Of a stretch of 64,000 nt of DNA, positions 5,653 to 56,727 are shown piece after piece (the first letter of the stretch is position 1; each line of letters begins with the position of its first letter). The notes below the pieces were generated by a model, which made no database searches, had not been told where the DNA came from, and saw only the letters and a list, made by a program, of their open reading frames with translations. Source of the stretch: an uncultured Mollicutes bacterium (GTDB lineage: Bacteria > Bacillota_I > Bacilli_A > RFN20 > CAG-826); NCBI GenBank assembly GCA_900545015.1, contig UQXJ01000005.1, forward strand, positions 2,668 through 66,667. The letters are read 5' to 3'. Position numbers and translations under genes: made by a program.

Positions 5653-6417
5653 ATGGGTAAAGTTAAAAAACAAAATATAGAAGAAATTAAAGTTAAAAAA
5701 CCATTGTGGAAAAGAATTACAAATGGAATTTTAACAGGACTTGTTGTTCTTATAATTGGAGCTATTGCTACTTTTGGAATAGCTTCTTTAACTAGCGATA
5801 AAAAAGCAAATTATGGTGTAAATGTTATATTTAATCATGCAATGCTAGTTGTTTTAACTGATTCAATGGATCCTGATTATCCAGTAGGTTCAGCAATATT
5901 TATTGAAAAAACTGATCCAAAAGATATAAAAATTGGTGATGATTTATCTTTTTATTATGATTCAATTGGAATGGTTATAACACATAGAGTAAGCGAAATA
6001 AAAACACCTTCTGAATCAAATTCACATTATACTTTTACGTTACATGGAATTAACACACATTCAACTCAATGTGGAAGTGAAGATAATCCAGAGGATTGCA
6101 CTTATCAAACACAAACTGTAACTGAAGATAAAGTAATTGGAAAAGTTATTGGAAGTAGTATTACACTTGGTAAAATTTATAACTTTATGGTAACACCAGC
6201 TGGACTTTTAATATTACTTTTGATTCCTGGTTCATATTTAATTTTTGTATCGCTTAAAACTATTGTTAAAACATTAAAAGAAGATGAAAATAAAGATGTG
6301 AAAGTCGTTTCAAGTTCTTCGACGACACTTGATTCATTAAGTGAAGAAGATAAAGAAAGATTAAAACAAGATTTATTAAATGAATTATTAGAAGAGAAAG
6401 GCAAAAAAGATGAGTAG
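5653..6417 (+). CDS. sipW: Signal peptidase I, ER/archaeal S26B type (SipW)
   Basis: N-terminal TM helix. Ser box LTDSMDPDYP. His box GMVITHRVSEI. C-terminal TM helix plus acidic tail. An alternative GTG start lies at 5647. Confidence 0.75.
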   Translation: MGKVKKQNIEEIKVKKPLWKRITNGILTGLVVLIIGAIATFGIASLTSDKKANYGVNVIFNHAMLVVLTDSMDPDYPVGSAIFIEKTDPKDIKIGDDLSFYYDSIGMVITHRVSEIKTPSESNSHYTFTLHGINTHSTQCGSEDNPEDCTYQTQTVTEDKVIGKVIGSSITLGKIYNFMVTPAGLLILLLIPGSYLIFVSLKTIVKTLKEDENKDVKVVSSSSTTLDSLSEEDKERLKQDLLNELLEEKGKKDE

Positions 6418-7933
6418 AAGGTTATATAACGTTATTCTTACTTCAATAAATGCACTTTTTTATGTGTTATTTAATCTTTTATATATCTTTTTAGTCTTTG
6501 TACCAAGTGGATTTATAACATATTCAGTTGTGATGTTCTATCTTTTTAGTGATTTATTTTTAATTGCTTTATCAATTAATGTTGCTTTTTTACTTAAAGC
6601 TTTTAGAGAACATAAACGATATTTAGAAGCTAATGAATATACATTTGGTGAACGTATTTCATTTTTAAATTACAACATGTTCGTTAGAAAAACTGATGAA
6701 TTAATTGGAACAAAAAAAGATCAATATATTATCTCTTTTTCACCTATTAAAATTTCAATAAATTATGAAATTTATCAAGGAAAAGAAATTCGACTACTTA
6801 ATAAATCAATTGCTTTATATTTAAATGAAACTTTTGGCACAAAAGAATATGAAAAGAAGAAAGTAAGAATGTGTTACGATAATTATTGTTTCATTATTTA
6901 TATTAGAGCTAACAAAGAAGAAGTTTTAAATATTGTTGAAATGATTGAACAAAGTGTCTATGAAATTGCTAAAACTGAAGACATTAGACTTTTTGTTCAA
7001 ACATTTTTTGGTATGGTTAAAGTTCAAGGAAATATTCAATTATTTGAACTTATAAATAGAGCAAACATTGCTCGTCGAATTGCTGAATATAACTATGAAA
7101 AAGTTGTTGAATATGAAGATAAAATGTCTAACGCTGAAGGCGAAAATAGTGGCTTAACTAAAGAAATTGTTGATGGCTTAAAAAACAATGAATTCGTTGT
7201 TTATTATCAACCTAAATATAATTTAGGAAGTAAACAATTTATTGGTGCTGAAGCTCTTGTTAGATGGAATCATCCAACTTTAGGAATTGTTTCACCTGTT
7301 AAATTTATCAATTTTGCAGAAAATAGAGGTTTAATCCATGAAATTGACCTTTATGTTTTAGAACAAGTTTGTAAAAATTTAGCTGACGAAAAGAAAAGAG
7401 GAAGAAAATTACTTTCAGTTTCAGTTAATTTCTCAGTTTATGAATTTTATTGCCCAACATTTATTAGTGATATTAAATCAACAATTGAACGTTATGGAGT
7501 TAATCCTCTTTTAATTGAAGTTGAAATTACAGAAGAAACAACACATGCGAATTCATTCTTAGTTATTTCAATTTTAAAGAATTTAAAGGATTATGGATTA
7601 AAAATCCTTCTTGATGATTTTGGTGTTGGTTTTTCAAACATTAAATCAATTAAAAATCTTCCAATCGATGTTATTAAAATTGATAAATCATTTATTGATG
7701 AAATTGTTTATGATTATAAATCAAGAGAAATTGTTAAAACTATTATTAATTTAGCAAAAGCTATGTCATATCACGTTATTGCTGAAGGTGTTGATAATGA
7801 AGAGCAAGTTGATGTTTTAAAGAAACTTAGGTGCGATACGATTCAAGGTTTCTATTATTCAAAACCAATGCCTTTAAAAGAATATGAAAAATTCTTAAAG
7901 AGCAATCCATTTGAAAAGAAAGGAAGTAATTAA
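6410..7933 (+). CDS. Membrane c-di-GMP phosphodiesterase (TM - degenerate GGDEF-like linker - intact EAL)
   Basis: ATG 6410 overlaps the sipW stop. EAL motifs present: GAEALVRW, SVNFS, EITEE, LDDFGVGFSN, KIDKSF, AEGVD, QGFYYSKP. Confidence 0.8.
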   Translation: MSRRLYNVILTSINALFYVLFNLLYIFLVFVPSGFITYSVVMFYLFSDLFLIALSINVAFLLKAFREHKRYLEANEYTFGERISFLNYNMFVRKTDELIGTKKDQYIISFSPIKISINYEIYQGKEIRLLNKSIALYLNETFGTKEYEKKKVRMCYDNYCFIIYIRANKEEVLNIVEMIEQSVYEIAKTEDIRLFVQTFFGMVKVQGNIQLFELINRANIARRIAEYNYEKVVEYEDKMSNAEGENSGLTKEIVDGLKNNEFVVYYQPKYNLGSKQFIGAEALVRWNHPTLGIVSPVKFINFAENRGLIHEIDLYVLEQVCKNLADEKKRGRKLLSVSVNFSVYEFYCPTFISDIKSTIERYGVNPLLIEVEITEETTHANSFLVISILKNLKDYGLKILLDDFGVGFSNIKSIKNLPIDVIKIDKSFIDEIVYDYKSREIVKTIINLAKAMSYHVIAEGVDNEEQVDVLKKLRCDTIQGFYYSKPMPLKEYEKFLKSNPFEKKGSN

Positions 7934-10540: not shown

Positions 10541-13500
10541 AAAAAATAAATTTATTTATTTTAAGCTCTGCTTTAATTATAGCTCCTTTAACAAGTTGCA
10601 AAACTGATGATAACAAAGGTAAAGAAACACATTTTCCAGTGAAAGATTTTGAATTAATTGGTTTTGATTCAAATAAACCTTATACAGTTGGTGAAATCAT
10701 CGATTTCACTAAAATGTCTTTACTTATAACTCGTAATGATGAATCAACTGAAACTATTAAAGCATTTAGCAATGACGTAACGATTAAAGGTGCATCAACT
10801 GAAGCTCCTGGATCCTTTACTTTTGAGATTACTTTTGAAAATAAAACAAATAATTATCGATATAGCGTTATTCAAAATTATGTAACTCTTGATTTTAATG
10901 GAGGAACTTTCGAAGACAAAAAAAGAAATAAAACTTCCTTTATATAATAATCAAGTCGATCTTTCTAAATATAGTCCAGAATTAACATGTGATGATGAAA
11001 AATCTTATAAATTTTCAGGTTGGTATTACGATAAAGAAAACACAAAAAGAGCAACTTATTTAATTGATAAAAATTTTATATCTTATGACAATACAACTCT
11101 TTATGCAGGATACGATTTAGATTATTCTGATGAATTTATCTATTCAATTAATGAAAGAGAAGGAACATGTGAACTTATATCGCCAAATTTTGATAATCCT
11201 TTTAATTTGGTTTCGACTGATACCCTTTATATTCCTAAAACTATTGAAGGTTATAAAGTAACATCGATTGCTGATGATTTTCTTGCTAAAAAAACGATTG
11301 ATGAAACTACTGGAGATGTTAGTTTTTCGGATTATGCCTGGCTAGCCAATTATAGAAAAATTGTTTTTCCTAGCGATTCATATGTTCAAACGATTGGAGC
11401 AAGATGTTTTAAAGGAGTTGTGACGCTTGTTAGCATTGAATTACCTAATTCTTTATTAACAATAGGAAAGGAAGCGTTTAGTGAAACTAAGCTTAATGGA
11501 ACTTTAACATTACCAAGTTCACTTAGAAAAATAGGTGAAAGTGCGTTTAGCTATGGAACTGGTAATTTATTAAAAGTTGAATTTAATGAAAATAGTGCAA
11601 TTAAAGTTATTGGAGAAAATGCTTTTCAAAATAATTTAAGTTTACATGAAGTTGAGCTTCCTAAAGGACTTGAAGAAATTAGAGAAGGAGCTTTTTCTAA
11701 TTGTAGAGATATTATTAATTTAAATTTGCCTTCGAGTTTATCAATTGTTGGAGTAAATGCTTTTAAATTAATGGATGGATTAAAAAATATAAATGTAGAT
11801 AAAGACAATCCTTTCTTTACAAGTTTAGATGGAAATTTATTTGATAAAAACATGACAAAATTAATTAAATATTGTTATGGAGAAAACGAAAAAGAATATA
11901 CTTTACCTAAATCAACTTTATACATAGATGATTCAGCTTTTAATGTTTTTGACTCTTTTATTTCACTTCAAAAATTAAATTTAAATGAAGGTTTAATTTA
12001 TATAGGAAGTGATGCGTTTAATGGTTGTACTTTTGAGTTTACTATTCCAAGTTCACTTAGAAATTTTGCTATTAATGCATTTAATGGATATAAGGGAACT
12101 TCATATAAAGTTGATGCGAAAAATAAATACTATTCTTGTGTTGATGGCTTACTTTGTTCAAAAAGTGGAAGAACTTTATATTCAGTTCCTGGAAATTACG
12201 ATACAAGGTTTTTTATTCTTAATGAAAATGTCGAAACGATTGGCGAATATGCGTTTTTTAATAACCAAAAAATTACTTTTATCAGAGTTCCTGAAGATAG
12301 TAAGTTAAGCGTGATTAAAAAGAACGCAATGATTTTAACATCTTTTAAAAATCTTAGATTAATTGAATTTAAAATTGAAAAGATGTTTACGATTTCTCGC
12401 GATTCATTTATCGCTCCTAATACAACATTTCACAAAAGTGTAATACCAATTATTTTTTATGATGAATACGTTAAAAAAGCATTTGAACAAAGATTTTATC
12501 GTAATGTAGAAGACGCTCAAAGCAAAGAAAATCAAACACTTTTATTAATGAATGATGAAATAAAAGAAAATGCATTGAAATATTTATATAAATCGACAGG
12601 TTTATCAAAACTTGAAGATTATAAAAAAGGAATAATGCCTCGATTAAATAAAGCAATTAATTTTGGTGAAGATGATTTTAAACTTGCTTCAACTTTATTA
12701 ATGTATATGTATCGAAATGGGTTCTATGAAAGTGACGAAATTCAATATTATAAATTGATTGAAAAGAATATTTTGAGCTCATTATATTATGCTGAAAAAG
12801 AAAATAGTAATACTATTAATCCGTTTGCAAATTATAATTTTTATCATGCTAGAACTGAAGTATATCCAAATGAATTTAAAGAAGATTTATTACCTTTAAT
12901 TAATAAAATAGATGCTTATTACAAAGGATTTGAAGTAGATTTAGATATAAATGCGATAAGTGCTTTGATAATGGATTTTGATATCTCTCAAAACAATTTT
13001 AATAATGAAGAAGCAAAAAAATTACTTAAAAGACTAGAAGAATTACGCATTGAAAGTAGGTCATTAGGCGAACAAGTTTATATTAGATATAATGCAATAA
13101 AGGCGTCTTCTTTAATTTACGAATGTTTAGAACATAATAAATTTAATGATGAAGATATGCTTTTTTTAGAAAGCAAGATTGAAGATAATTCAACTAATAA
13201 TTATTATGGCATAAGAAGTTATTTAAATGGTTGGTTTAATAATGAATTTAGGCAATCAATTCTTTATAAATTTGATGAATTTAAAACGCTTTTAGATGAG
13301 TATGATGCTAAAAAAGAAACGTTTAAAAATAACTTAATAAATAATGTTAATAACTTCGATTATTCTATCTTTGATGAAGCAAAATTTAATACTTTTTATG
13401 ATAAAAATGTTAGTCATTTATTAAATGAGCATTATTATGATTTATCAAGCGAAGAAAGAGCGATTTGCTATACGATAATTTCAATGATTAATATTAATGA

Positions 13501-14092
13501 TTTTCTTAATGATAATGAAAAAATTAGTGATGATAATTTTATTTTGAAATATGAAAAAATTAATGAAATTGATAATTTATTAAGTGAGGTGAGTGTTAAT
13601 TCAAGTATTGATTATGAAGCAATTATCGAATCAAATTTCCCTACGTATATTACAAAAAAAGATGAAGTAATTAATTACAAAAACACTTTTGTCGATGAAC
13701 TAAAAAATGAAATTATTAACTTTGAAATTAATAAAGAAAATTTAAAGAATAAATATAATCTTTTAATAGAAAAAATCAAAAAACTTGGAAGTTTTTCATC
13801 AGATTGTTTACGCGATGATAATGATATATTTATCAATAAATATTATATTATCCAAGCATCTTTTATTATCTATAATTTAATTGAAAATTATCCTAATAAA
13901 ACAAAAGAAAATTATAACGAAATTAGAGATTATCTTTATGATCATATTGATTTTGATTCGTGTACATTTATAAATGGAAAAGTAGGAATAATTAACGATT
14001 TTTTAACTCATTTGAATAATGACACTTCATCAATTTATGAGTATGATAAATATGTTGAATATATAGACTTTATAGAACAGGGGTTAAACTAG
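10537..14092 (+). pseudogene. Surface lipoprotein with Listeria-Bacteroides repeat and BspA-type leucine-rich repeats, split by a frameshift in an A7 tract
   Basis: ORF 10537..10947 has a signal peptide with lipobox LTSC. ORF 10889..14092 (TTG, no signal peptide) continues the same domain. Reading ...VTLDFNGGTFEDKK then, skipping one A, EIKLPLYNNQVDLSKYSPELTCDDEKSYKFSGWYYD reconstitutes a Listeria-Bacteroides repeat. Downstream are LRR_5-type repeats (IGARCFKG, IGKEAFSE, IGESAFSY, IGENAFQN, IREGAFSN). Confidence 0.65.
10918..10924 (+). repeat. A7 homopolymer at the frameshift junction of the LRR lipoprotein gene
   Basis: Counted directly: gac-aaaaaaa-gaa. Removing one A (A6), or adding two, fuses frames 10537 and 10889. 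Confidence 0.9.
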
Positions 14093-14093
14093 T

Positions 14094-17000
14094 TTGGAAG
14101 AGGGCAGATTAATTTTTACTATTCAAAATGATACTCATAAAGTTATAAGTATCAATCTTGATGAACTTCGTGTTCCGATATCTTTTGAAGAATATTTTAA
14201 TCAATATATTAGTAAAGATATTCTTTTTATTTTAGATGAAAATTATAATGAAAATACTATTTTAAATTTTATCCTTAATGAACGTGAATTCGGAACTATT
14301 ACATTTAATGGAAATAATAATGAATATGTTTATAAATTCACTTTATATAGTAGAAATGAATCTAAAACAACAATTACAATTGATCGATATTATTCAGCAA
14401 AAAATGTTGAAGTAACTTATGACTTTTTAACAGGAGTTTATTCAAGAAATTATTTAGTTTCTGAAATTCAAAAGCAACTTGATAAAGGATATAATTTTAA
14501 TTCTTATATTATAATTATTGACCTTGATAATTATAAACAAATTAATGATACATTTGGTCACCTCGTTGGTGATTTATGCTTAAAGAAAATTGTATCTGAC
14601 GTTAAACTTGTTTTTAAAAATCATTTAGTTGGAAGATATGGTGGAGATGAATTTTTAATTTATGTTAAAGATGTAACGCTTGATGAACTTCACGCTTTAA
14701 TTGAAGAAGCATTAAAAATTGAATTTAAATATACAAAAGGAATTAAATCAAGTGATGCTGTTACAATTTCTATAGGTATTAGTAAAGAAATAGGAAATAG
14801 AGAAAATTTAGATGAACTTGTAGAAGAAGCTGATGAAGCTTTATATAAATGTAAAAGACTAGGAAAAAACCTTGGATCTTTTTATAAAGGCAAAATTTAT
14901 GTCGGTCCAAAGAACAATAAAGCACTTAGAAAAAAGACAAGAATTTCATCTTCTTACACCTTTAAAGAAGAAATTAGAAGAAAAAAAGTCTTGTTTTACA
15001 CGCTTTTTATAAGTTTATCTGCATTTTTTGTTGTTTTATCTTTAACTATTAACATTGTTTATAATCTTAACATTAGTAGTCAAGCAGACTCAATTGCAAG
15101 CTCCTTAATGTATCAGCAAAGTAGTGATGTTGCTGATAAAACAAAAAAAGAAATTGAATATGTTTATGCTCGACTTTATAGTGCAACAAGGATTATGGAA
15201 AACATAGAAGCTTCAACACTTGATGAGTTTTATAGTTCAGCAATTACAAAAACTGAAGAATTTGTGGACATAAATCACGCTGGATTAATTTTAAATAATG
15301 GCAATGCGTATTATAAATACAAAGATGAACTTAGACTTTATAATTTAACAAATAAAGCGATTAATACGATTGAAAACCTTAATAATAAAATAGCTTGTGC
15401 AGAAAGAGTTCAATTTGCTGATCAAGATGTTATTATGATTTCTACTCCTTATGACAAAGAAGTTTCTTTTGGTAGTAACAAAGCAAGTATCTCAGGAATT
15501 TTTTGTTATTATAGTATTGAAGAAGCAAGACATAATATTTTTGATTCTTTACGAGTCGATACGACAAAGTATTTATCGATTATTACAAGTGATGGGAGTA
15601 AAATCCTTGATACACAAGTGACTAATGATTTATCTATTTTTCAAGATTTAACAAATGTTTTAAATGTTTATAAAAATGATAAAAATCAATACGAAAAATT
15701 TGTTAACTACATTGATAATGATTCTTCAAAAGTTGAATTATTTGATATTAATAGAAGAAAATATTATTTCTTTATAAAAGATATTGAAAAAGTTGAAAAT
15801 TGGAAGATTTTATATGTTGTTTCTTATAGTGACATTCTTTTTTATATTGGGAATTTGGTTAGGCTTTCTGAAGTTTCTATGCTCACTGTTAGCGTTACAA
15901 CAATTGTGTTAGTTTTATTCGTTTTATCTTTATTTTATAGGATAAAAATGAAAAGTTTTATTGCTAAATTTGTTGACCCACTTACAGGTATAATAAACGA
16001 ACATAGATTTGTAATTGATGCAAAAGAAGCAATTAAAAAACGTCCAGGTGATTGGTATATTATTTATATAAATATCGCTCATTTTAAATTTATTAATAAT
16101 CAAATTGGTTCAAATAAAACTGATGCTCTTATTAAAGATATTGCACTTTATTTATCAAAAAATATTAAAGAAAACGAGATGGTATCACGTGAATTTAATG
16201 ATAGATTTATGCTTTTACTTAAATGTGAAACACTTGGAATATGTAAAGAAAGAATATCGAAACTTCTTGATGTTTTAACTGATGAAATACCTTCTAAATA
16301 TGATGTAAAACTTATAATGAGTGCTGGTATTTATAATTTTGAAAATCAAGATGAAACGACGTATCTTGCAATTGATAAAGCTCGTATAGCTGCTGAATCT
16401 GTTTATATAGGAAGAAAACCATATTATTTATGTGTTTTTGATACTGAAATGGAACAAAAAAGTGAAATGGATAATTATATTGAGCAAGCTAAAGAATTTG
16501 CTTTGCAAAACAACAAATTTAAAGTCTATTATCAAGGAATTTATGATCCTAAAATTAAAGAATTTATTGGATGTGAAGCTTTAGTACGTTGGAAAGATGA
16601 TAAATATGGATTTATTAATACTCAATATTTTATTGATCTTTTTGAAAACAATGGATTTATCTTAAAACTTGATTTATTTGTTTTTGAAACTGTTTTAAAA
16701 GATTTAAGTGAAAGAATTAATAGAAATGAAAAAGTCATTCCTATTTCAGTTAATTTATCAAGAAGACATTTCCATATTGATAATTTCCTTGATGAGTATG
16801 AAGAACTCATGAATAAATATAATGTTGATGGTAAATATCTTGATTTTGAAATTACTGAATCTGTTATTTTAAATGAACGTATTAATTTAGAAAACATCAT
16901 TGCAAAAATTCATAGCTTTGGATCGACTGTGTCAATTGATGATTTTGGATGTGGTTTTTCAAATCTTAGTATGATTAATAAAGTTGACTTTGATTATTTA

Positions 17001-17243
17001 AAACTCGATAAAAAACTATTTGTTGGTAAAAGCTATTTTGATGACAATAGTAAACGAATCCTTGAGATGGTTTGTAAACTTATTAAATCACTTGGAAAGA
17101 AAACAATTTGTGAAGGTGTTGAAAGTAAAAAACAAGTAACTTTCTTAAAATCAATTGGTTGCGATTACATCCAAGGCTATTATTATTCTAAGCCTTGCGA
17201 AAAAGAAGAATTTGCTAAACAATTTGAAGAAAATAAAAAATAA
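14094..17243 (+). CDS. Bifunctional c-di-GMP enzyme: N-domain - GGDEF (intact) - TM - extracytoplasmic sensor - TM - GGDEF-like (degenerate) - EAL (intact)
   Basis: TTG start 1 nt after the upstream stop, with AGGGG about 11 nt upstream. First GGDEF domain: DFLTGVYSRNY, DLDNYKQINDTFGHLVGD, RYGGDEFLIY. Second domain has FNDRF in place of GGDEF. EAL motifs: GCEALVRW, SVNLS, EITES, DDFGCGFSN, KLDKKLF, CEGVES, QGYYYSKP. Confidence 0.8.
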   Translation: MEEGRLIFTIQNDTHKVISINLDELRVPISFEEYFNQYISKDILFILDENYNENTILNFILNEREFGTITFNGNNNEYVYKFTLYSRNESKTTITIDRYYSAKNVEVTYDFLTGVYSRNYLVSEIQKQLDKGYNFNSYIIIIDLDNYKQINDTFGHLVGDLCLKKIVSDVKLVFKNHLVGRYGGDEFLIYVKDVTLDELHALIEEALKIEFKYTKGIKSSDAVTISIGISKEIGNRENLDELVEEADEALYKCKRLGKNLGSFYKGKIYVGPKNNKALRKKTRISSSYTFKEEIRRKKVLFYTLFISLSAFFVVLSLTINIVYNLNISSQADSIASSLMYQQSSDVADKTKKEIEYVYARLYSATRIMENIEASTLDEFYSSAITKTEEFVDINHAGLILNNGNAYYKYKDELRLYNLTNKAINTIENLNNKIACAERVQFADQDVIMISTPYDKEVSFGSNKASISGIFCYYSIEEARHNIFDSLRVDTTKYLSIITSDGSKILDTQVTNDLSIFQDLTNVLNVYKNDKNQYEKFVNYIDNDSSKVELFDINRRKYYFFIKDIEKVENWKILYVVSYSDILFYIGNLVRLSEVSMLTVSVTTIVLVLFVLSLFYRIKMKSFIAKFVDPLTGIINEHRFVIDAKEAIKKRPGDWYIIYINIAHFKFINNQIGSNKTDALIKDIALYLSKNIKENEMVSREFNDRFMLLLKCETLGICKERISKLLDVLTDEIPSKYDVKLIMSAGIYNFENQDETTYLAIDKARIAAESVYIGRKPYYLCVFDTEMEQKSEMDNYIEQAKEFALQNNKFKVYYQGIYDPKIKEFIGCEALVRWKDDKYGFINTQYFIDLFENNGFILKLDLFVFETVLKDLSERINRNEKVIPISVNLSRRHFHIDNFLDEYEELMNKYNVDGKYLDFEITESVILNERINLENIIAKIHSFGSTVSIDDFGCGFSNLSMINKVDFDYLKLDKKLFVGKSYFDDNSKRILEMVCKLIKSLGKKTICEGVESKKQVTFLKSIGCDYIQGYYYSKPCEKEEFAKQFEENKK

Positions 17244-17511
17244 GTGAGTTTTGCAAAGATTTTTCGAAAAAAATTTAAAAAATACACTCATAGTAGGTTG
17301 ACCAAGTAAATAATTTTATGATAAGATTTCATCAGTTAAATATTTTTTATTTGTAGACTTATTAAAAATTTAAAAAAAGTAAAAGGTAAAAACTATATTT
17401 TTTGTACAAAATATTTAATTACGTTTTGATATTTAATTAACTCGAAGTTCTAAAGACTTATATATTTTTTGGATATAATCTTTGTAAATTTTACATGAGA
17501 TATATATAATA

Positions 17512-17590
17512 TCTCCTGAAAAAGGCAAAACTAAAGTGATTTAGTGACGCAAAACTATAGGGTCTTCAATAGACAGCCAGTTACCATAAT
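17512..17590 (+). promoter_or_regulatory. Candidate c-di-GMP-I (GEMM-I) riboswitch
   Basis: GGCAAAA (17524-17530). Hairpin CUAAA-GUGA-UUUAG (17531-17544) with a GNRA loop. GACGCAAA (17546-17553). Hairpin CUAU...AUAG (17555-17572). ACAGCCAGUUACC (17573-17585). TATAAT at 17505-17510 just upstream. Lies in a 423-nt intergenic region before ATG 17667. Confidence 0.65.
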
Positions 17591-17666
17591 TTTGAATAAT
17601 TATTTATTAAATTTATCGTTTTATTTTGCTATAAAACTGATCTTGGACGATTCAAAGGGGAAAATT

Positions 17667-20600
17667 ATGAAAAGAAAAAGAGAGAAATCATTAGTTAATT
17701 ACCTTAAACTCAGAATTGTAATACTTTCTTTGTTAACTATTGTCTTGTTTGGATTAGAAATCTTTTTCGGTGTTTCATATTTTACTAATGGTCAAGATAA
17801 AATTACTTTAATATGTTTTATCCTTGCAACAATTGTAACGATTCTTTTAGCTGCTTATTTAATTTATTGTAGTGTCACAATTACTCGTATTATTTATAAA
17901 GATATTTATCTTAAATCATTATCAAATTATGATGAGATTGCTCATTTTAAATACGACTTTAAAAAATATAATCTTACTAAAATTAGAGAATTTAAAGTTT
18001 TAAATGAAAAACTTGATCACATTGAAGAAAGTTATAAAGGTGTACTTATCTGCGAACCTTCAAAAACATATGATGATTTTGAATTTAGCTACATTAAAGA
18101 TTTTGAAAATCATAAAGTTATTCAATTTGTAGATTTTAAGAAAAATATTCAAAAATTAATTAATCTAAGTAGAACATATCGAAACGTTTTCGTGTCTTTT
18201 AAATTTATTAAAGAGAGCGATGTGGAAGTAAAAAATGATAATTTAATTCGCTTTATTGAATTATTAGAAGAAACATTTAAAAATAATTCACCACTTATTT
18301 CTTTCGACTCTTCAAATCAATCATTTTATATGTATCTTCCTAACATTGATTTGATCTCAATTTTAAAAGATAAATTAAATTATGCTGTAACTAACTTTTT
18401 CATTGCTGATTATAAAATGAAAACGGAAGTTACACATTTAAAAGCTAGTGCAGTAATTTATCCATATACTGCAGGAGAAGATATTTTATCTCATTTAAAA
18501 TATGCTGAACGTAAAGGCAATGATGTTAATATCTATATTCCAGAATTTAACAGTGTTAATTCAGACAACAACAATTTATATAGTGAAAAAGTTGCTAAAT
18601 TGAATAAAGTCTTTGATCTTATTTCTAGTAAAAAGATGATTAAATCAAATAGCCAAAACTATATAGAAAAAATTACTAATGGTATTAAAAACGTTACTGA
18701 TTTATTAGGATTTGATATTGGCGGTATTGCAACTAAAAATTTCGATGATGAAACAATTACTTTAAGAAAGACTTATGCTAATGATCCTTCTAAGAATGAT
18801 TATTTTAAGACTGACATCTTTAATTCAGATTTTGTCAACACTTTAAGAAATAAATGTGATGATGATTCAACTTATGTATTCTATGATGCAGTTGATACTC
18901 CTCACGAATTAAAAGAAACATTTGATTTGTATGGAATTAAATCTGGTTATCTTTATCTCTTTTATAACGAAGGTGCTTTAGTTGGTATAATTTTCTTCTT
19001 TAATTTTGATAAGCCATGCGTTATTGATAACTATAGTAGAGGCGCAATTTTATATTGTTGCTCGATGATTGGCAATATATTAAATGGTTATGGAAACATG
19101 GTTAGTGTGAATCATTACATGAAGAACCTTGAAAATGTTTTAAGCTTATCAAACATAAAAGAGTATACAGTAAACAAAACCAACTATAGATTGTATGCAG
19201 TTTCTAATGAACTTAAAACCTATAAAAAGAATGTTAAACAAGGTGACATTTGCTATGAAGCAATTTACGGACTTAAAAAGCCATGCGAAAATTGTCCTTT
19301 GAATAAACTAAAAAGAAAAATCGTTACTATAGATGATATTAATTATGCTTATCACACAAGCAATATCAAAGAAAGTAAAAACTTCATTAGTATTTATCTT
19401 TTACCAGTGGCTGAAACATCGACAATTATGTGTAAGCAAAGAATTGATCCAATTTTATTACTTAATACTACATATTCTTTGGTTGAGGAACTGAATAATA
19501 AATTTGCCATGAAGAGCAAAGGCTATTTGTTATTAGTTAGAATAGAAAATAAAGATGAAATTCTTGAAAAAGTTGGTGAGGATGGATTCCGAGACATTCT
19601 TATTAATATAAGTGACAATATTAAAGAAAATAATTTTGGCGAATCACGTGTCTATTTATATTCAGACGACACTTTGGGACTTATTTTAAATGAAGTAGGT
19701 CGTAATGAAATATTTAAAATTGGAGAAAAAATCTCTAGTTTTATTGATGCAGCAACTTTAAATATCGATAACTTAAAAATTAACTCTACACAATTTTTCT
19801 ATCAATATCCTTTAACCTATCCAACAGCTTATGACTTCTTTAGAAATGTTGAACTTTCAATCAATAACGAACCAAGAAGAATTGATAATCTTCTTATCTT
19901 AAAAGATGAAAATATTACTAGACCTATGAATAAAGAAGCTTATATCCTTGATTTGCTTAATACTTCATTCAATAAACATTCTTTTGATATTAGAATCCTT
20001 CCTATTATTAAAAAGGAAACTAAATCATTATATGGTGGTGAAGTATTATTAAGGCTGAAAGATACTTTAACAGGAGATTTCTTCAGTGCTTATGAATTTA
20101 TTGATGTTGCTATTAAAAATGATATGATGCATCTATTTACTAATCTCATCATTGAACAAATTGGAAAATTATATAAACAATATGGTCAAACAGTATTTAG
20201 ATCTAATTGTCTTGATAGAATCTCAATCAATTTAGATTCTTCATACTTCAATTCTTATACATTTGTTGATGATATTGCTGAGCTTTTAAAAGTTTATAAC
20301 TTTAATAAGGATTTCCTTTCATTCGAACTTAATGAAGAAGATATTTATAACCATTATGAATTAATTAAAGGAGTTACTAAAAAACTTAAAGGTTATTACA
20401 TCAAATTTGTTTGCGATCAATACACCGGAAAATTCTTAAGCTTTGAAAAATTATCAAAAATTGGATTTGAAGAAATTAAATTAAGCCGTGATATTGTAAA
20501 CGATATTGATAGTAATGCTTTAAAGTTAAACGAAGCTAATATTTTAATAAATGAAGCACATAACTTTAATATGAAGGTAACAATTGTTGGCGTTGAAAGA

Positions 20601-20735
20601 AAAGAACAACTTGAAGTTATTAAAGATAACCATGATGTAGATTATTTACAAGGCTATTATTTCTATAAACCACTCGAGGAGAATGACTTCTTATCTTTAG
20701 TAAAAACGATGCTTTTAAAAATACCTTTAAATTAA
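17667..20735 (+). CDS. Membrane protein with degenerate GGDEF-like and degenerate EAL domains (candidate c-di-GMP receptor)
   Basis: AAGGGG RBS before ATG 17667; the GTG 17544 extension overlaps the riboswitch. Two N-terminal TM helices. YSDDT replaces GGDEF. EAL region: GGEVLLRL, SINLD, ELNEED, VCDQYTG (for DDFGTG), KLSRD, IVGVE (for EGVE), QGYYFYKP. Cys cluster CYEAIYGLKKPCENCP. Confidence 0.7.
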   Translation: MKRKREKSLVNYLKLRIVILSLLTIVLFGLEIFFGVSYFTNGQDKITLICFILATIVTILLAAYLIYCSVTITRIIYKDIYLKSLSNYDEIAHFKYDFKKYNLTKIREFKVLNEKLDHIEESYKGVLICEPSKTYDDFEFSYIKDFENHKVIQFVDFKKNIQKLINLSRTYRNVFVSFKFIKESDVEVKNDNLIRFIELLEETFKNNSPLISFDSSNQSFYMYLPNIDLISILKDKLNYAVTNFFIADYKMKTEVTHLKASAVIYPYTAGEDILSHLKYAERKGNDVNIYIPEFNSVNSDNNNLYSEKVAKLNKVFDLISSKKMIKSNSQNYIEKITNGIKNVTDLLGFDIGGIATKNFDDETITLRKTYANDPSKNDYFKTDIFNSDFVNTLRNKCDDDSTYVFYDAVDTPHELKETFDLYGIKSGYLYLFYNEGALVGIIFFFNFDKPCVIDNYSRGAILYCCSMIGNILNGYGNMVSVNHYMKNLENVLSLSNIKEYTVNKTNYRLYAVSNELKTYKKNVKQGDICYEAIYGLKKPCENCPLNKLKRKIVTIDDINYAYHTSNIKESKNFISIYLLPVAETSTIMCKQRIDPILLLNTTYSLVEELNNKFAMKSKGYLLLVRIENKDEILEKVGEDGFRDILINISDNIKENNFGESRVYLYSDDTLGLILNEVGRNEIFKIGEKISSFIDAATLNIDNLKINSTQFFYQYPLTYPTAYDFFRNVELSINNEPRRIDNLLILKDENITRPMNKEAYILDLLNTSFNKHSFDIRILPIIKKETKSLYGGEVLLRLKDTLTGDFFSAYEFIDVAIKNDMMHLFTNLIIEQIGKLYKQYGQTVFRSNCLDRISINLDSSYFNSYTFVDDIAELLKVYNFNKDFLSFELNEEDIYNHYELIKGVTKKLKGYYIKFVCDQYTGKFLSFEKLSKIGFEEIKLSRDIVNDIDSNALKLNEANILINEAHNFNMKVTIVGVERKEQLEVIKDNHDVDYLQGYYFYKPLEENDFLSLVKTMLLKIPLN

Positions 20736-44408: not shown

Positions 44409-45857
44409 ATGAATGATATAATTAAAGAGTTAAAAATTATGAACTTATTTGATATTATTCCAGAGAATTATTTTGGTCTATTTGCAGGGAAAAATAGATC
44501 AATTTATATCGAAAGCTTACTAGTACTTTATGACTTACTAGAATCAGATGAAACTCTAATTTCAAAAAATGATTTTATAAAAGCATTAAAAGAGAAAAGT
44601 GACGACATCGATAAGTTTTCATATGCGGATGAAGACTTTGAAACTACAGGAGATGAGGCATTACTTTTAAACACAATAAATGCGAAAGCAACTTTTATTG
44701 TTAACAGACTTGAAGAAACTGGTTGGATCGATATAGCAATGAATCCCGACACTTTTGAAGAAACGATTGTATTACCACAATACTCAATTTTAATTTTAAA
44801 AGCTTTTAGAGATATCATCAGTGATGAAGAATCACCTTATATTAGTTTAGTCCACTCTACATATAGTGAACTTAAACTCGAAGATGAAGAACAAGATGAA
44901 TTAATGTTTGTTACATTACTTAGAAGCTTTGAAAATACAAAGAAATTGAAAGTCGAGTTAATTACTGTAACTCACTCAATTAGAATTTTCCAAACAAAAC
45001 TTTCTAAACTTTTTGATACTAACAAAGTATTACATGATTATTTTGATGTTTATAAAAAGAAAATTAGCGACAGATATTATCATCCTTTAAAAACTTTTGA
45101 TAGTGTTGCTCGTTTTAAACGACCAATTATTAAAATTTTAGACAAATGGTTAAATACAAAAGAAATTAGAGAGAAACTTGTTGTCCAAGCAAGTTTATCA
45201 ATGGGCATTAACGATAAAAAAGAAATAGAAAAAGAAATTATTAGTAAAATTAACTTTATCACTGATACTTATGAGAGATTGAACGCTATTATTGCTGATA
45301 TTGATAAAGAAAATAATGCTTATACAAGAAGCAGTACTAATAAAATTCTTTATCTTAATAATAACGATAAAACTATTAAAGGTTACCTTGAAGATATTCT
45401 TAAAACTTATGCTAAGAATACTAACAATACAAGAATGCTTTCTAAGATTTTAAGCAAAATGCAAGATTCCATTTATTTTTATGAACAAGGATACATTGAT
45501 CCAACGAGCGTAACTCTACCAATACTTAGAAGACTTCGTGAAGATAGTGACCCATTAGCGTTAGTTTCATTTGATGATGCAGCTGACTTAATGATGTCTG
45601 GATTCCTTGAAGAAACAAAAGGTATATTTACTGATGATAAAGTTTATGGATTTATGCATGAAGCATTCCAAGGAAGAGAGAAGATTGGAATAGAAGATGT
45701 ACCGCTTTCTAATTTTGATGCATTTATTTGCTTAATTCTTGCGGTCATCAAAAAAGATGATGAACATTGCTTCTATAAAGTTGAAGAAATTGACAAAACA
45801 AAAGTTCATACGCAAGGGTATATCGTTCCAAACTTTGTTTTTACGATAAAGGAGTAA
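44409..45857 (+). CDS. JetA/MksF-like (kleisin-type) subunit candidate of a Wadjet/MksBEF-like complex
   Basis: Called mainly from size (482 aa) and its position as first gene of a three-gene unit with a DUF4194-like protein and an SMC-like ATPase. The start may be ATG 44439. Confidence 0.5.
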   Translation: MNDIIKELKIMNLFDIIPENYFGLFAGKNRSIYIESLLVLYDLLESDETLISKNDFIKALKEKSDDIDKFSYADEDFETTGDEALLLNTINAKATFIVNRLEETGWIDIAMNPDTFEETIVLPQYSILILKAFRDIISDEESPYISLVHSTYSELKLEDEEQDELMFVTLLRSFENTKKLKVELITVTHSIRIFQTKLSKLFDTNKVLHDYFDVYKKKISDRYYHPLKTFDSVARFKRPIIKILDKWLNTKEIREKLVVQASLSMGINDKKEIEKEIISKINFITDTYERLNAIIADIDKENNAYTRSSTNKILYLNNNDKTIKGYLEDILKTYAKNTNNTRMLSKILSKMQDSIYFYEQGYIDPTSVTLPILRRLREDSDPLALVSFDDAADLMMSGFLEETKGIFTDDKVYGFMHEAFQGREKIGIEDVPLSNFDAFICLILAVIKKDDEHCFYKVEEIDKTKVHTQGYIVPNFVFTIKE

Positions 45858-45863
45858 TATATT

Positions 45864-46505
45864 ATGTTTAGTGAAGATTATTTAAAGATTCCTCAAGCAG
45901 ATAAGAATGAATTCGGTTCTGTTGTTAATACTTTATTACTCAAAGGATTTATAGTAAGAGATATCTATGATAGTAAAGAAAAAGTAATGAAGACAAATCC
46001 TGATTATAGATTTCTTGAAAGATATTTTGACTTAGTAAATGATTATTTAAAATTTAGTGGTTGGAATATCGAAAAAGATGTAATTCTTGGAGTTATTGCT
46101 TTAAGCAATTTTTATACAGAAAATCGTATTAAAATTGATAGAGAAACAAGCTTAGTTTTATTTGCTTTAAGATTAATTTATGAAAATGAAAAAGGTGCAA
46201 GTAATTCTAGCAATCAAGCTATTTACATTACTACACCCGGGCTTCTTAACATCATGATTGAGGATGGTGTTACTATGCCAGGCAGAAAAATGAATGGCCG
46301 TTCACTTGCTCGCGCACTTCGCTTTTTAGCAAATCACAATATTATTACAAAAGTTAGTGGAAACTATGATGATGGAAATGTTTCTTTCTACATCTTACCT
46401 TCAATTGTATATGCTCTTGATAATGATAGAATCGTTGCAATGAGTGAAGCATTAAAGGAATTAAATGAAAAATATAACAACTCTCAACAAGGAGGGCTCT
46501 TTTAA
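45864..46505 (+). CDS. jetB: JetB/MksE-like (DUF4194-type) subunit
   Basis: 213 aa. AAGGAG RBS. N-terminal pattern VVNTLLLKGFIVRDI...YRFLERYFDLVNDYLKFSGWNIEKD is consistent with DUF4194 as I recall it. Its stop overlaps the next start. Confidence 0.6.
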   Translation: MFSEDYLKIPQADKNEFGSVVNTLLLKGFIVRDIYDSKEKVMKTNPDYRFLERYFDLVNDYLKFSGWNIEKDVILGVIALSNFYTENRIKIDRETSLVLFALRLIYENEKGASNSSNQAIYITTPGLLNIMIEDGVTMPGRKMNGRSLARALRFLANHNIITKVSGNYDDGNVSFYILPSIVYALDNDRIVAMSEALKELNEKYNNSQQGGLF

Positions 46506-49500
46506 TGAAACAATTAACAAAAATTAGAATTATAAATTGGCATTATTTTTGGGATGAAACTATCGACGTTAGGCCAATTGTATTTTTAACAGGTGTTAAC
46601 GGTAGTGGTAAGTCAACATTAATCGATGCTTTACAAATCGTTTTATTAGGTGACACAAGTGGCAGATCATTCAATAAAGCTGCTATGGAAAAGTCAAACA
46701 GAACATTAAAAGGCTATTTACGTGGTGAACTTGGTGATACTGAAGATGGTGGATTTAAATATTTAAGAAATGGAAGATTTACTTCATATATTGTTCTTGA
46801 ATTTTATGATGATTTAAATAAAAACTCATTCTTAATGGGTATAGTATTTGATAGTTATGACGATGGAAGTGAAGATCATCATTTCTTTACAGTCGAAGGA
46901 GCTATGCCTGTTAATAATTTTGTTGAAAACAATGTGCCTCTTGATTATAAGAGACTTGCTGCATTCTTTAACGAAAATTATCCAAAATCATTTACGTTCT
47001 TTGATTCAAATAAACAATATCAAGAATTTTTAAAGAAGAAATTTGGTGGATTAAAAGATAGATACTTCTCATTGTTTAAGAAAGCTACATCATTTGCTCC
47101 AATTGCAGATGTTCCTTCCTTTATTACAGATTATGTTTGTGAACCTCAACCAAATATTGTTTTAGATAAATTACAAGACAATATTCTTCAATATAAGAGA
47201 CTTGAAAATGAAGCCTTAAATATCGAGAAGAGAGTTAGAAGACTTGAAGACATTCAAAAAGAATACAATGTCTATGCTGCTAATCTTGAAAATTTAAAAA
47301 TTTCTCAATATATTCTTGAAAAGTGTCAACTTGAACAAGCATATGCAAAATTACGTTCCTACAATAATGCTATTGAAAGAAACAATGCAAGAATTGAAGA
47401 AATTGATGTTGAACTTGAAGACTTCAAGAGTAGTCTTGAAGAACTTGAAGTTAAAAAAACAAGATTAATTGGCGATAGAGCAAGCAACGACTCTGAACGT
47501 ATCGCTTTAACTTTAAAAGAAGAAAAGAGAAACGTTGAAACAAAAATTAATGAAATTAATAGAAATATTGAAATTGTAAAAGACAATTTAAGTTCTTATA
47601 CAAATAACTTTTATCAAGCAGCTTCAAAATTATTAGATGATGCAAAGGATATTGATTACTCTTTATTAGGTGCTGATCTTGAAGAAGACTTTAACATCGC
47701 AGAAGAATATGCAAGAAAAGTTAAAAATAGTTGTGAAAGATTTAAAGAAACATTCTTAGAAGATCTTTCAAAAATGACAAAGGAAGATTTATCAACTTTT
47801 AGAGATGATTTACTTTTATTCAAACAAACTATTTCTAAACTTGTTTATTCAGTAGGTATTTCTTCACAAAAAATTGAAAAAACTATTCGTGATTTAAGAA
47901 GTCAAGAAACTGAAATGAAAGGTGGTACTAAAACATATAGTACTGAATTAACAATTATCAAGCAAAGACTCGAATCAAAACTTGAAGAAACATTTAATAA
48001 AAAGATTCCTGTTTCAATTTTTGCTGATTTAATAGATATCGATGACTTAAGTTGGTCAAATGCAATTGAAGGACTTCTAAGTGCACAAAAATTTAATTTG
48101 TTTGTAGCGCCTAAATATTATGAAGATGCTTATAAAATCTTAAGAAATTTACTTAATGATTTTAATTTCTATGGTACTGCATTAGTTGATGAAGAAAAGA
48201 TTATTGATCGTAATCCAATATGCGAAAATGGTTCACTTGCTGAAGAAATTTCAACTAATCACGAAGGTGCTAGAGCTTATACTAATTTCTTATTAGGAAG
48301 AGTTCATAAATCAAAAGACATTGCGGAAGCTAGAGAGTCTGGAAATGGTATTACTAAAGAATGTGATCTTTATAGAAATTTCACACTTAGTAGACTTAAT
48401 CCTAAACTTTATAGAACAAGCTTTATTGGAAGAAATGTTGGTGATAGATTTTTACGTGAAAAGAGTGAACAACTTCAAAGCAATATCGAATTACTCAACA
48501 TTTATCATGGAATTTCATCTATATTAAATAATGCAAACTCTCTTGAAGTTATTACAACTACTGAAATTGATAACTCATTCAATTTATTAAAGAGAATTTC
48601 TGAATTATCAGGACTTATCAAAAACAAAGAATATATTGAAGGGGAATTGAAAGATAGTGGTTCTCCATTAACAAGTTCAATCGATAATAGAATTAAAGAT
48701 ATCGAAGCAGATATTAAATCTATTAGCGATTCTAGAGAAAGAATTATTCTTGAAAAAGGAAATCTTGTAAAAGATATTGAAAATATAAAAACTGATAAGA
48801 TTATTTCTGAACAAGCAAGCATTAAACAAATGGAAGATAATATTAACTCCCATTATGATCCTTTCTTGGTTAGTGATAAGGCTTTGCCTATTTATAATCA
48901 ACAAAGAGAAGAAGGAAAATCTAATCTCGAAATTTTATCCATGTTTAATGTTGAACAATCTCGATTAAATTACCAAGTAAATAGTCTTAAGAATTCAATT
49001 ATTAAATTAAGAAGAGACTATTGTAATGATTATCATCTTTCTTATGATGTAGAGAATCAGTCGAATGAAGTGTTTGAGGCAGAATTAACTGATTTTAGAG
49101 ATGTTAAATTACCTCAATATAGAGAAAAAATTCAAGATTCTTACGAAAAAGCAACAAAGCAATTTAAAGATGACTTTATCTTTAAATTAAGAGCAGCAAT
49201 CGAAGATGTTGAAGACCAAATTGAAAACTTAAATGGCGCATTAAAACAATCTTCTTTCGGAAAAGATCAATACGAATTTACTGTTAGACCTTCACAAGTT
49301 TATAAGAGATATTACGATATGCTCAAGGACGACTTAATCATTAATGGTGGTAAAGACGATACTGAGTTTATTACTAAATATAAAGATGTCATGGAAGACT
49401 TATTTAAACAAATTGTTGATGTCGGAAATGGCGATAAAAATGGTTTATTATTAGAAAACATCACTAAATTTACTGATTATAGAAGCTATTTAGATTTTGA

Positions 49501-49870
49501 TGTTATCGTGTATAATAAAGATACAGGTGATGTGAAACGACTTTCAAAAATGATGAGAAAAAATAGTGGTGGTGAAAACCAAACACCATTCTACATTTCA
49601 GTCTTAGCATCTTTTGCACAGTTATATCATGTCAATGATGAAGGAGAAATCGGCAACACAACTAGATTGATAATTTTCGATGAAGCATTCTCTAAGATGG
49701 ATAGAAACAGAATGACTGAAGCTGTTAAACTTTTAAGGAAATTTTCTTTACAGGTTATTCTCAGTGCACCATACGATAAAATTCCAGATATTTCACCTTT
49801 AGTAGATGAAACATTAATTGTGCTCCACGATAAAAATAAGAGTTGTGTGCGATTATTCGAAAAAGAGTAA
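46505..49870 (+). CDS. jetC: JetC/MksB-like SMC-family ATPase
   Basis: N-terminus IRIINWHYFWDETIDV...FLTGVNGSGKSTLIDALQIVLLGDTSGRSFNKAA...LKGYLRGE. About 700 aa of coiled coil. C-terminal signature SGGENQ and Walker B LIIFDEAFSKMD. Confidence 0.8.
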   Translation: MKQLTKIRIINWHYFWDETIDVRPIVFLTGVNGSGKSTLIDALQIVLLGDTSGRSFNKAAMEKSNRTLKGYLRGELGDTEDGGFKYLRNGRFTSYIVLEFYDDLNKNSFLMGIVFDSYDDGSEDHHFFTVEGAMPVNNFVENNVPLDYKRLAAFFNENYPKSFTFFDSNKQYQEFLKKKFGGLKDRYFSLFKKATSFAPIADVPSFITDYVCEPQPNIVLDKLQDNILQYKRLENEALNIEKRVRRLEDIQKEYNVYAANLENLKISQYILEKCQLEQAYAKLRSYNNAIERNNARIEEIDVELEDFKSSLEELEVKKTRLIGDRASNDSERIALTLKEEKRNVETKINEINRNIEIVKDNLSSYTNNFYQAASKLLDDAKDIDYSLLGADLEEDFNIAEEYARKVKNSCERFKETFLEDLSKMTKEDLSTFRDDLLLFKQTISKLVYSVGISSQKIEKTIRDLRSQETEMKGGTKTYSTELTIIKQRLESKLEETFNKKIPVSIFADLIDIDDLSWSNAIEGLLSAQKFNLFVAPKYYEDAYKILRNLLNDFNFYGTALVDEEKIIDRNPICENGSLAEEISTNHEGARAYTNFLLGRVHKSKDIAEARESGNGITKECDLYRNFTLSRLNPKLYRTSFIGRNVGDRFLREKSEQLQSNIELLNIYHGISSILNNANSLEVITTTEIDNSFNLLKRISELSGLIKNKEYIEGELKDSGSPLTSSIDNRIKDIEADIKSISDSRERIILEKGNLVKDIENIKTDKIISEQASIKQMEDNINSHYDPFLVSDKALPIYNQQREEGKSNLEILSMFNVEQSRLNYQVNSLKNSIIKLRRDYCNDYHLSYDVENQSNEVFEAELTDFRDVKLPQYREKIQDSYEKATKQFKDDFIFKLRAAIEDVEDQIENLNGALKQSSFGKDQYEFTVRPSQVYKRYYDMLKDDLIINGGKDDTEFITKYKDVMEDLFKQIVDVGNGDKNGLLLENITKFTDYRSYLDFDVIVYNKDTGDVKRLSKMMRKNSGGENQTPFYISVLASFAQLYHVNDEGEIGNTTRLIIFDEAFSKMDRNRMTEAVKLLRKFSLQVILSAPYDKIPDISPLVDETLIVLHDKNKSCVRLFEKE

Positions 49871-56486: not shown

Positions 56487-56547
56487 CATTTATATAGTAA
56501 AGTAATAAATAAGAGTTCAATTTTAATTTTAAAAAAAGTATAATCTA

Positions 56548-56727
56548 GTCGATGAATAATTAAAGATTTTTATTTCTTAGAGAATTAACGGGTGGTGAAA
56601 GTTAATAAATAAAACTTTAAGTCTCACATCGACGATTTAACTTTAATGAGAGCGCTAAAAGTTTTTAGCGAACTAAGGTGGTACCGCGTATATTACGTCC
56701 TTAGAATGTTTTCTAAGGATTTTTTTA
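56548..56727 (+). promoter_or_regulatory. T-box leader (Leu specifier) controlling leuS
   Basis: TATAAT at 56539-56544. Stem I base GTCGATG (56548-56554) / CATCGAC (56627-56633). AGAGA at 56579-56583. CUC-A specifier at 56623-56626. T-box sequence AACTAAGGTGGTACCGCG at 56671-56688. Terminator hairpin at the 3' end. Confidence 0.8.
56699..56727 (+). terminator. T-box attenuator terminator
   Basis: CCTTAGAA-TGTT-TTCTAAGG followed by ATTTTTTTA. Confidence 0.75.

Follow-up and report, generated by a model that had tools for sequence, protein, structure and literature searches.

Results

Identification of a c-di-GMP-I aptamer 5' of a gene for a degenerate GGDEF-EAL protein

The DNA analyzed here is a stretch of 64,000 nucleotides (nt), referred to below as the window, which originates from an uncultured Mollicutes bacterium (assembly GCA_900545015.1, contig UQXJ01000005.1, positions 2,668 to 66,667 of the forward strand). 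It contains an intergenic gap of 423 nt (17244-17666) located between a GGDEF-EAL gene that ends at 17243 and the ATG (17667) of a gene for a membrane protein of 1022 amino acids (aa). An earlier note, based on the sequence alone, had placed in this gap a candidate riboswitch of the cyclic di-GMP class I (c-di-GMP-I, also GEMM-I) and had proposed to verify it using Infernal and the RF01051 model. Analysis of the whole window with Rfam 15 revealed an RF01051 match at 17514-17588 (+) that reached 63.1 bits, where the gathering score is 35 (E = 5.5e-10, computed for 64 kb and 4227 families), spanned the full model (positions 1-87 of 87) and was the sole match in the 64 kb to reach its gathering score. 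A covariance model of our own (R1), built from the orthologous sequences described below, gave the same aptamer 96.5 bits. Furthermore, a permissive Rfam scan indicated nothing for c-di-GMP-II (RF01786) within 17250-17700, even at E ≤ 10, and a match to RAGATH-19 (21.1 bits vs 85.6, E = 0.47) was discarded as noise. The proposed class is thus upheld by a score with 28 bits to spare, by canonical contact nucleotides and by the presence of the element in front of all orthologues found. We consider the assignment of the aptamer to be nearly certain, and the element at 17514-17588 is very probably a functional c-di-GMP-I riboswitch. Within a well-known class of riboswitches, it is an ordinary member, not described before, which standard Rfam annotation would detect. 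Association with GGDEF/EAL genes is typical of this class (PMC7266159), and a review of Clostridioides difficile riboswitches (PMC11477304) gives no class I example 5' of a GGDEF/EAL gene and so provides no closer precedent. The features of the locus are collected in Table 1.

Table 1 Features of the riboswitch leader and of the regulated gene, with positions counted from the first nucleotide of the window
Feature	Position	Strand	Basis
-35-like hexamer TTGTAA, 17 nt 5' of the -10 box	17482..17487	+	consensus scan, 10/12 matches; consensus match only
Palindrome GAGATAT-ATATA-ATATCTC, perfect 7-bp arms, centred on the -10 box	17497..17515		read directly
-10 box TATAAT	17505..17510	+	scan
c-di-GMP-I (GEMM-I) aptamer, structured core 17517-17586	17514..17588	+	RF01051 63.1 bits, R1 96.5 bits, subfamily covariation
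G20 equivalent, Hoogsteen partner of one ligand guanine	17524	+	RF01051 alignment; role PMC5888326, PMC6140456
First hairpin, 6 bp, GNRA loop GUGA 17536-17539	17530..17545	+	model alignment, covariation
C44 equivalent, inter-helix Watson-Crick partner of G83 (17576)	17548	+	C and G invariant in 105/105
A47 equivalent; A rules out the GGC class	17551	+	alignments to RF01051/RF03167; A in 105/105
Second helix domain: AACU/AGUU, GG/CC, AG bulge 17575-76, GUCU/AGAC, 5-nt loop UCAAU	17553..17582	+	model
C92 equivalent, Watson-Crick partner of the second ligand guanine	17584	+	RF03167/RF01051 alignment; C in 99/105
CAUAAUUUU, complement of the start-codon region; its first 2 nt form the P1 3' strand	17585..17593	+	minimum-free-energy fold; function inferred
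AU-rich hairpin AUCGUUUUAU-UUUGCU-AUAAAAC(U)GAU, 10 bp with one bulge, no U run after it	17616..17642	+	fold
Shine-Dalgarno sequence AAGGGG, 6 nt 5' of the ATG	17655..17660	+	read directly; AAAGG core conserved in orthologues
AAAAUUAUG, 3' strand of the proposed sequestering helix, start codon 17667-17669	17661..17669	+	minimum-free-energy fold
Regulated gene, 1022-aa membrane protein: GGDEF-like ~593-750 (SDDTL), EAL 766-1002	17667..20735	+	Pfam, alignments to the DosP EAL domain and to the neighbouring paralogue

Architecture of the aptamer

The aptamer resembles the Vc2 aptamer of Vibrio cholerae, itself a member of RF01051, in having a GGCAAA strand paired with GACGC, a first hairpin capped by a GNRA loop and an AG bulge in the second helix. 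G20, A47 and C92, which are the ligand contacts of the Vc2 structure (as defined in PMC4744006 and PMC5888326, with their roles also described in PMC6140456), are all present in the window, and so are both bases of the inter-helix pair C44:G83, which is described as universally conserved (PMC4744006). The differences are as follows: (i) the P1 helix comprises only 2 base pairs (bp), G17518-C17585 and U17517-A17586, and no terminator is present; and (ii) the second helix ends distally in a very short segment (4 bp and a 5-nt loop), where the RF01051 consensus has a further stem. In the region where a tetraloop receptor would be expected, the consensus CUAAG...UAUG is replaced by CUUCA-AUAG, which closes the 5-nt loop. 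The sequence AUAGA is invariant in the six orthologous aptamers.

The elements named in the earlier note lie where it had located them, that is AAAGGCAAAA at 17521-30, CUAAA-GUGA-UUUAG at 17531-44, GACGCAAAA at 17546-54 and ACAGCCAGUUACC at 17573-85, and the same is true for the TATAAT box, the palindrome, the AAGGGG sequence, the ATG and the limits of the gap. Its description of the secondary structure needed amendment. The GUGA loop was recognized correctly, but the first hairpin has 6 bp (17530-35/17540-45) and not five. The second hairpin, for which CUAU (17555-58) had been paired with AUAG (17569-72), is not the pairing of the family: it is broken in the orthologues (CUAG/AUAG and CUAA/AUAG), whereas the pairs of the model hold, i.e., AACU 17553-56 with AGUU 17579-82, GG 17560-61 with CC 17577-78 and GUCU 17562-65 with AGAC 17571-74.

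Conservation of the element in orthologous loci and in a metagenomic subfamily

The downstream protein is rare, as a collection of 5.8 billion sequences contained three related clusters (formed at 90% identity), which shared 97%, 55% and 55% identity with it. A search of the GTDB genomes with a single protein found nothing, and one with an alignment of four proteins found four loci. Every orthologue found (protein identity of 49-97%) has an RF01051 match of 61.5-66.8 bits located 48-78 nt 5' of the start codon, the distance from the aptamer end to the ATG being 78 nt in the window. Between the lineages, identity amounted to 79-83% in the aptamer core, 64-67% in the coding sequence (CDS) and 44-56% in the linker. 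Since the aptamer core is better conserved than both the CDS and the linker, this pattern of sequence identity indicates selection on the RNA. The six orthologous aptamers by themselves resemble one another too closely for covariation to be informative (2 two-sided changes; 117 of 500 shuffles did as well).

A larger set of relatives was obtained by scanning metagenomes with a pattern for the 5' half of the aptamer (GCAAAACUARAGNNAUYUAGUGRCGCAAARCUA), which yielded at least 119 contigs, and the covariance model made from the orthologues aligned 105 distinct sequences. In this alignment, which is fitted to the model and in which much of the first hairpin is fixed by the search pattern, 95.6% of the cells were paired compared with at most 39% in slid controls, two-sided changes occurred at 11 of the 20 pairs, including all 6 pairs of the first hairpin, and none of 500 shuffles matched the observed values. 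The inner pair of P1 was found to covary as well (GC in 60 sequences, UA in 14 and AU in 6). A GNRA tetraloop was present in 104 of the 105 relatives, while A47, A48, C44 and G83 were invariant. The G/A/C triad of the window (positions 20/47/92) is the majority form (73/105), and its 5-nt loop in the second helix has the commonest length (32/105). As judged from these sequences, the window aptamer is a typical member of a widespread subfamily, with which it shares a nearly identical core, the same short second helix and the GNRA loops. Some members differ from the window, where a single aptamer is present, in having tandem triplets (L014 and L120). Some metagenomic contigs carry two or three class I aptamers in tandem, with start-to-start distances of about 80-160 nt (L120, 174-486; L014, 7286-7596; L092, 5136-5302; L065, 1582-1741).

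The regulated GGDEF-EAL protein

The product of the gene downstream of the aptamer was also called from the ATG on ENA/Logan contigs. Its translation contains hydrophobic segments at the N-terminus, and no Pfam match was found in the N-terminal region of about 500 aa. The earlier note had described the gene as a degenerate GGDEF/EAL gene, and this is what the domain analysis revealed. The GGDEF region matched Pfam with 12.4 bits, below the cut-off of 23.8 (E = 0.13), and in place of GG(D/E)EF it has SDDTL in the window and SNNCL or NSETL in the orthologues. The EAL domain was matched with 112 bits. When compared with DosP, it retains E(VL), R, N, ExxE, the first D, K, E and Q, but two acidic residues are missing from what we take, from RocR and TBD1265 studies, to be the catalytic set (E, R, N, ExxE, DD, KxD, E, Q): Q (N in the orthologues) stands at the second D of DDFGTG, and S (G in the orthologues) at the D of KxD. 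By its sequence, this degenerate GGDEF-EAL protein may act as a receptor for c-di-GMP or as a phosphodiesterase of weak activity.

Degenerate GGDEF-EAL receptors of c-di-GMP are represented by LapD and FimX, with which the window protein shares a membrane anchor, a GGDEF-like domain whose motif is gone and an EAL domain with an incomplete catalytic set. It differs from them in that (i) the similarity of its EAL domain to theirs is weak (E of about 1e-4 among the PDB matches), (ii) this domain keeps most of the binding and catalytic residues, which would be compatible with residual phosphodiesterase activity, and (iii) the N-terminal region of about 500 aa has no known domain. Three cysteines (Cys529, Cys540 and Cys543) within the segment CYEAIYGLKKPCENCPL (residues 529-544), where no Pfam match exists, are invariant in all four orthologues, and these residues may form a metal-binding site.

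Promoter and leader

The promoter elements given in Table 1 have counterparts in the orthologues. L002 and L010 have TTGAAA at the same 17-nt spacing, and the segment ATATATAATAT, in which the -10 box is included, does not vary among four orthologous leaders whose identity is otherwise 44-66%. Because of the spacing from this conserved box, the transcript is predicted to start probably at about 17515-17519, a few bases 5' of the aptamer core. A second TATAAT (17475-17480), situated 30 nt 5' of the conserved one, is confined to the lineage of the window and L006. If it were used, the RNA would include the hairpin of the palindrome and the sequence UCUCCU (17511-16), which is complementary to the Shine-Dalgarno (SD) sequence AGGGGA.

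The perfect palindrome to which the earlier note had drawn attention is present, and its dyad symmetry is kept in L002 and L010 (AAAAATA...TATTTTT), but it is not statistically notable. Perfect inverted repeats whose arms measure 7 nt or more number 108 in the window, and shuffles of the intergenic sequence that preserved dinucleotides contained 1.1 on average, so that such a repeat occurs at a frequency expected by chance in DNA of 25-30% GC. Its role as an operator or as an RNA hairpin was rejected on account of this frequency and of its position, which is probably 5' of the transcript start.

Candidate expression platform and proposed mechanism

A scan of 17200-17750 found no terminator-like site, and two different scans found no hairpin with a U run in 17586-17666, which confirms the impression of the earlier note that a clear terminator is absent. 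In the four other orthologous lineages, the stretch from the aptamer to the start codon likewise had none. The metagenomic relatives are different in this respect. When terminator-like hairpins were counted within about 110 nt of the aptamer, 57 of 88 unique relatives had one: in 41 of them a hairpin followed by a U run uses as its 5' strand the 3' strand of the aptamer through C92, in 16 a separate terminator lies downstream, and the remaining 31 have none. In relatives of the first type, the aptamer stabilized by its ligand must exclude the overlapping terminator, and hence those platforms of the subfamily that can be read are ON switches. In the window, the solid hairpin of the linker (17616-17642) was not recognized as a terminator by the scan, and it sits in a 22-nt insertion that is confined to the lineage of the window and L006.

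In the minimum-free-energy fold of the window leader, CAUAAUUUU (17585-93) forms a helix with AAAAUUAUG (17661-69), to which it is perfectly complementary over 9 nt. When P1 was enforced in the model, the probability that the AUG is unpaired rose from 0.04 to 0.44, and the SD sequence was about 60% unpaired in both states. The SD region of L002 and L010 is complementary to a strand of the aptamer itself, AUAGGGUCUUUU (-9.1 and -14.6 kcal/mol), which would give the same polarity. Folding of the six orthologous leaders indicated that the partner of the SD/AUG region differs by lineage, and a shared platform was not found.

These findings led us to propose the following mechanism. The mRNA for the 1022-aa protein would have the aptamer right at its 5' end and be transcribed from its own conserved promoter. 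Without ligand, CAUAAUUUU, which begins one base past C92, would pair with AAAAUUAUG, and the start codon would be hidden. When c-di-GMP is bound, C17585 and A17586 would be drawn into P1 with G17518 and U17517, and formation of P1 would take from the sequestering helix its only G-C pair and free the AUG. More c-di-GMP would then result in more of a protein that binds or slowly degrades c-di-GMP, which would constitute a feedback or relay loop. The ON polarity is favoured by four observations: the terminators of 41 of the 88 relatives are of the ON type, the 9-nt complement abuts C92, P1 frees the AUG in the model, and L002 and L010 have pairings of their own. We judge the chances of this polarity to be about even, and the same may be said of translational rather than transcriptional control. 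Their combination, a translational ON switch as modelled here, is put forward tentatively, with somewhat less than even chances.

Several points speak against this mechanism. Its steps are predictions from sequence and modelling, and the transcript start is likewise a prediction made from promoter spacing. Complements of at least 9 nt were found for 3% of random sites and for 1 of 40 other genes. The sequestering helix is not conserved in the orthologues of 55% identity, and in L004 and L008 the candidates for pairing with the SD/AUG region are weak (-6 to -7 kcal/mol) and unconvincing. The leader containing this AU-rich helix folds no better than its shuffles (z = -0.11), and the helix and the aptamer coexist in the minimum-free-energy fold with an overlap limited to the 2-nt P1, so that the coupling between them could be weak. 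As for P1 itself, the share of paired cells in the relatives is only 70%.

Control might instead be exerted on transcription, again with ON polarity, by an intrinsic terminator or by Rho-dependent termination that escaped the scans. The terminator-like hairpins of the relatives, most of which overlap the 3' strand of the aptamer, are in favour of such control, and the host belongs to the low-GC Bacilli, in which termination control predominates. Moreover, a terminator stem could have left a remnant in AACUG (17635-39), the complement of CAGUU (17578-82). Against this stand the 5 bp to which this complementarity is limited, the absence of a hairpin with a U run at 17586-17666 and in the four other orthologous lineages, and the fact that the sole solid hairpin, at 17616-42, is followed by CUUGGACG. 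We consider transcriptional control of this kind unlikely. An OFF switch at the level of translation, or an action through mRNA stability or processing, would agree with the varied outputs of those class I riboswitches without terminator that have been characterized (Vc1 and Vc2 are covered by PMC4744006). In the model, a P1 of 2 bp provides only weak coupling, and the predicted accessibility of the SD sequence is about the same in both states, which fits such outputs too. However, the relatives with readable platforms are of the ON type, and the candidate pairings in the window, L002 and L010 all use strands that the ligand-bound aptamer would lock away, so an OFF switch or an effect on mRNA stability also appears improbable to us.

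Ligand specificity and remaining alternatives

Because the G20/A47/C92 triad is canonical, the ligand predicted from the sequence is c-di-GMP, an assignment that we regard as likely with good confidence. Position 20 is not uniform in the family. It is G in the aptamers of the window, L006, L002 and L010, and A (AAAAAGCAAAAC) in the orthologous aptamers of two sister species (L004, 3860-3942; L005, 3231-3311; L008, 4004-4087). The latter is not an assembly error, as L004 and L005 are independent assemblies that agree; the aptamer of L004 also has GGCGC for GACGC. Among the 105 sequences, position 20 is G in 77, A in 24 and U in 1, and four aptamers combine G20 with U92, so that variants of the ligand contacts are common in this nearly identical family. 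A20 is the change found in the GEMM-Ib RNAs that sense c-GAMP or are bispecific (PMC6140456).

It could be asked, then, whether the window aptamer itself senses 3'3'-cyclic AMP-GMP (c-AMP-GMP), or both dinucleotides. The GEMM-Ib riboswitches for c-AMP-GMP, such as Geobacter Gs1761 and Cbe 1-2 from Clostridium beijerinckii, have the same fold and the A20 that is seen in L004 and L008 (PMC6140456), and the occurrence of A20 in the sister-species orthologues and in about a quarter of the subfamily is what makes this ligand worth considering. Unlike them, the window has G20 (G17524), as do L006, L002 and L010, and so is not of this type, and wild-type Vc2 with G20 binds c-GAMP with a dissociation constant of about 10 µM compared with picomolar values for c-di-GMP (PMC6140456). 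We find recognition of c-AMP-GMP by the window aptamer very improbable. A bolder scenario, in which this lineage converted a terminator-type ON riboswitch to a terminator-less one that gates translation by the strand next to C92 and controls a receptor-like degenerate GGDEF-EAL protein, with a G20 to A20 drift of ligand specificity in the sister species at the same site, seems to us rather doubtful.

Another candidate was the c-di-GMP-I-GGC variant (RF03167), whose ligand is not established. In E-value mode with clan competition, RF03167 scored 58.6 bits, which is 0.4 below its gathering score of 59, and its E-value was lower than that of RF01051. What 'GGC' denotes in this model we presume from the two Rfam consensus lines. 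Almost the whole consensus is common to RF03167 and the window aptamer, and the two models themselves are nearly identical, for which reason cross-matching is to be expected. The base that distinguishes them is the one after GACGC, which is G in RF03167 (GACGCGAA) and A in RF01051 (GACGCAAA). As the window has A at 17551 (GACGC-A-AA, not GACGC-G-AA), and as this A is found in 105 of 105 relatives too, we regard the near-threshold match as cross-matching of a sister model and not as membership. With the bit score being higher for RF01051 and RF03167 falling short of its threshold, the GGC class is a highly improbable assignment.

Finally, although an open frame runs from GTG 17544 into the gene, the idea that the element is the 5' coding end of a longer protein, with an incidental RNA motif, has a negligible chance of being right, since the GTG extension has no SD sequence of its own while AAGGGG stands 6 nt 5' of ATG 17667, the gene calls on five contigs and all orthologues begin at the ATG, leader lengths differ among orthologues by 22 nt and other non-multiples of three, and conservation tracks RNA pairs rather than codons, all of which agrees with the earlier view that this extension is probably not coding.

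Neighbouring genes and other features of the window

The riboswitch gene is preceded by a run of genes related to c-di-GMP and to the cell surface, which comprises a stand-alone EAL gene (6410-7933, 236 bits), a gene for a BspA-type leucine-rich-repeat protein of 1067 aa (10889-14092) and the GGDEF-EAL gene (14094-17243). The order of leucine-rich-repeat gene, GGDEF-EAL gene and riboswitch gene is kept in L004. The upstream GGDEF-EAL protein (14094-17243, +) has an intact RYGGDEF motif, and at residues ~110-125 it has LTGVYSRNY, in which S occupies the place of the Asn of the cyclase sequence LTGxxNRR (T in L004 and L008). In PleD, this Asn contacts guanine.

Two further loci were noted in the window. 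A match to the T-box leader model (RF00230) at 56543-56705 (+), which at 91.4 bits falls just short of the gathering score (93; E = 1.2e-18), lies directly 5' of a leucyl-tRNA synthetase (LeuS) gene. ATG 56742 is probably the true start of this gene, as a frame opened at the listed start (56646) crosses the leader. The named sequences closest in LeuS, at 77-78% identity, belong to a metagenome-assembled genome labelled 'Bacilli bacterium' and to Candidatus Onthovivens, and we based the placement of the host among the low-GC Bacilli on these, since the NCBI labels of related assemblies ('Lachnospiraceae bacterium', 'uncultured Staphylococcaceae bacterium') contradict one another. A Wadjet-type defence locus occupies 44409-49870 (+) and consists of JetA (PF18982, 291 bits; 44409-45857), a small open reading frame and a gene for an SMC/SbcC-like ATPase of 1121 aa (46505-49870).

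Discussion

The riboswitch described here is one more among many catalogued members of the c-di-GMP-I class, and the understanding of the class is unchanged by it. Its points of interest are minor and include the loss of the terminator that is usual in the subfamily, a degenerate GGDEF-EAL protein as the target, and the G20/A20 difference between sister species. The 88 close relatives provide a natural series of one aptamer with and without an overlapping terminator, and the orthologous G20/A20 pair lends itself to comparing ligand specificities as they occur in nature. If the scenario of a converted expression platform accompanied by drift at position 20 were true, it would represent natural drift of ligand specificity, from c-di-GMP to bispecific or c-AMP-GMP recognition, at one conserved gene. 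For the organism, the riboswitch places the gene of a rare 1022-aa membrane protein, the role of which is otherwise unassigned, in the c-di-GMP regulon of an uncultured lineage of gut Bacilli.

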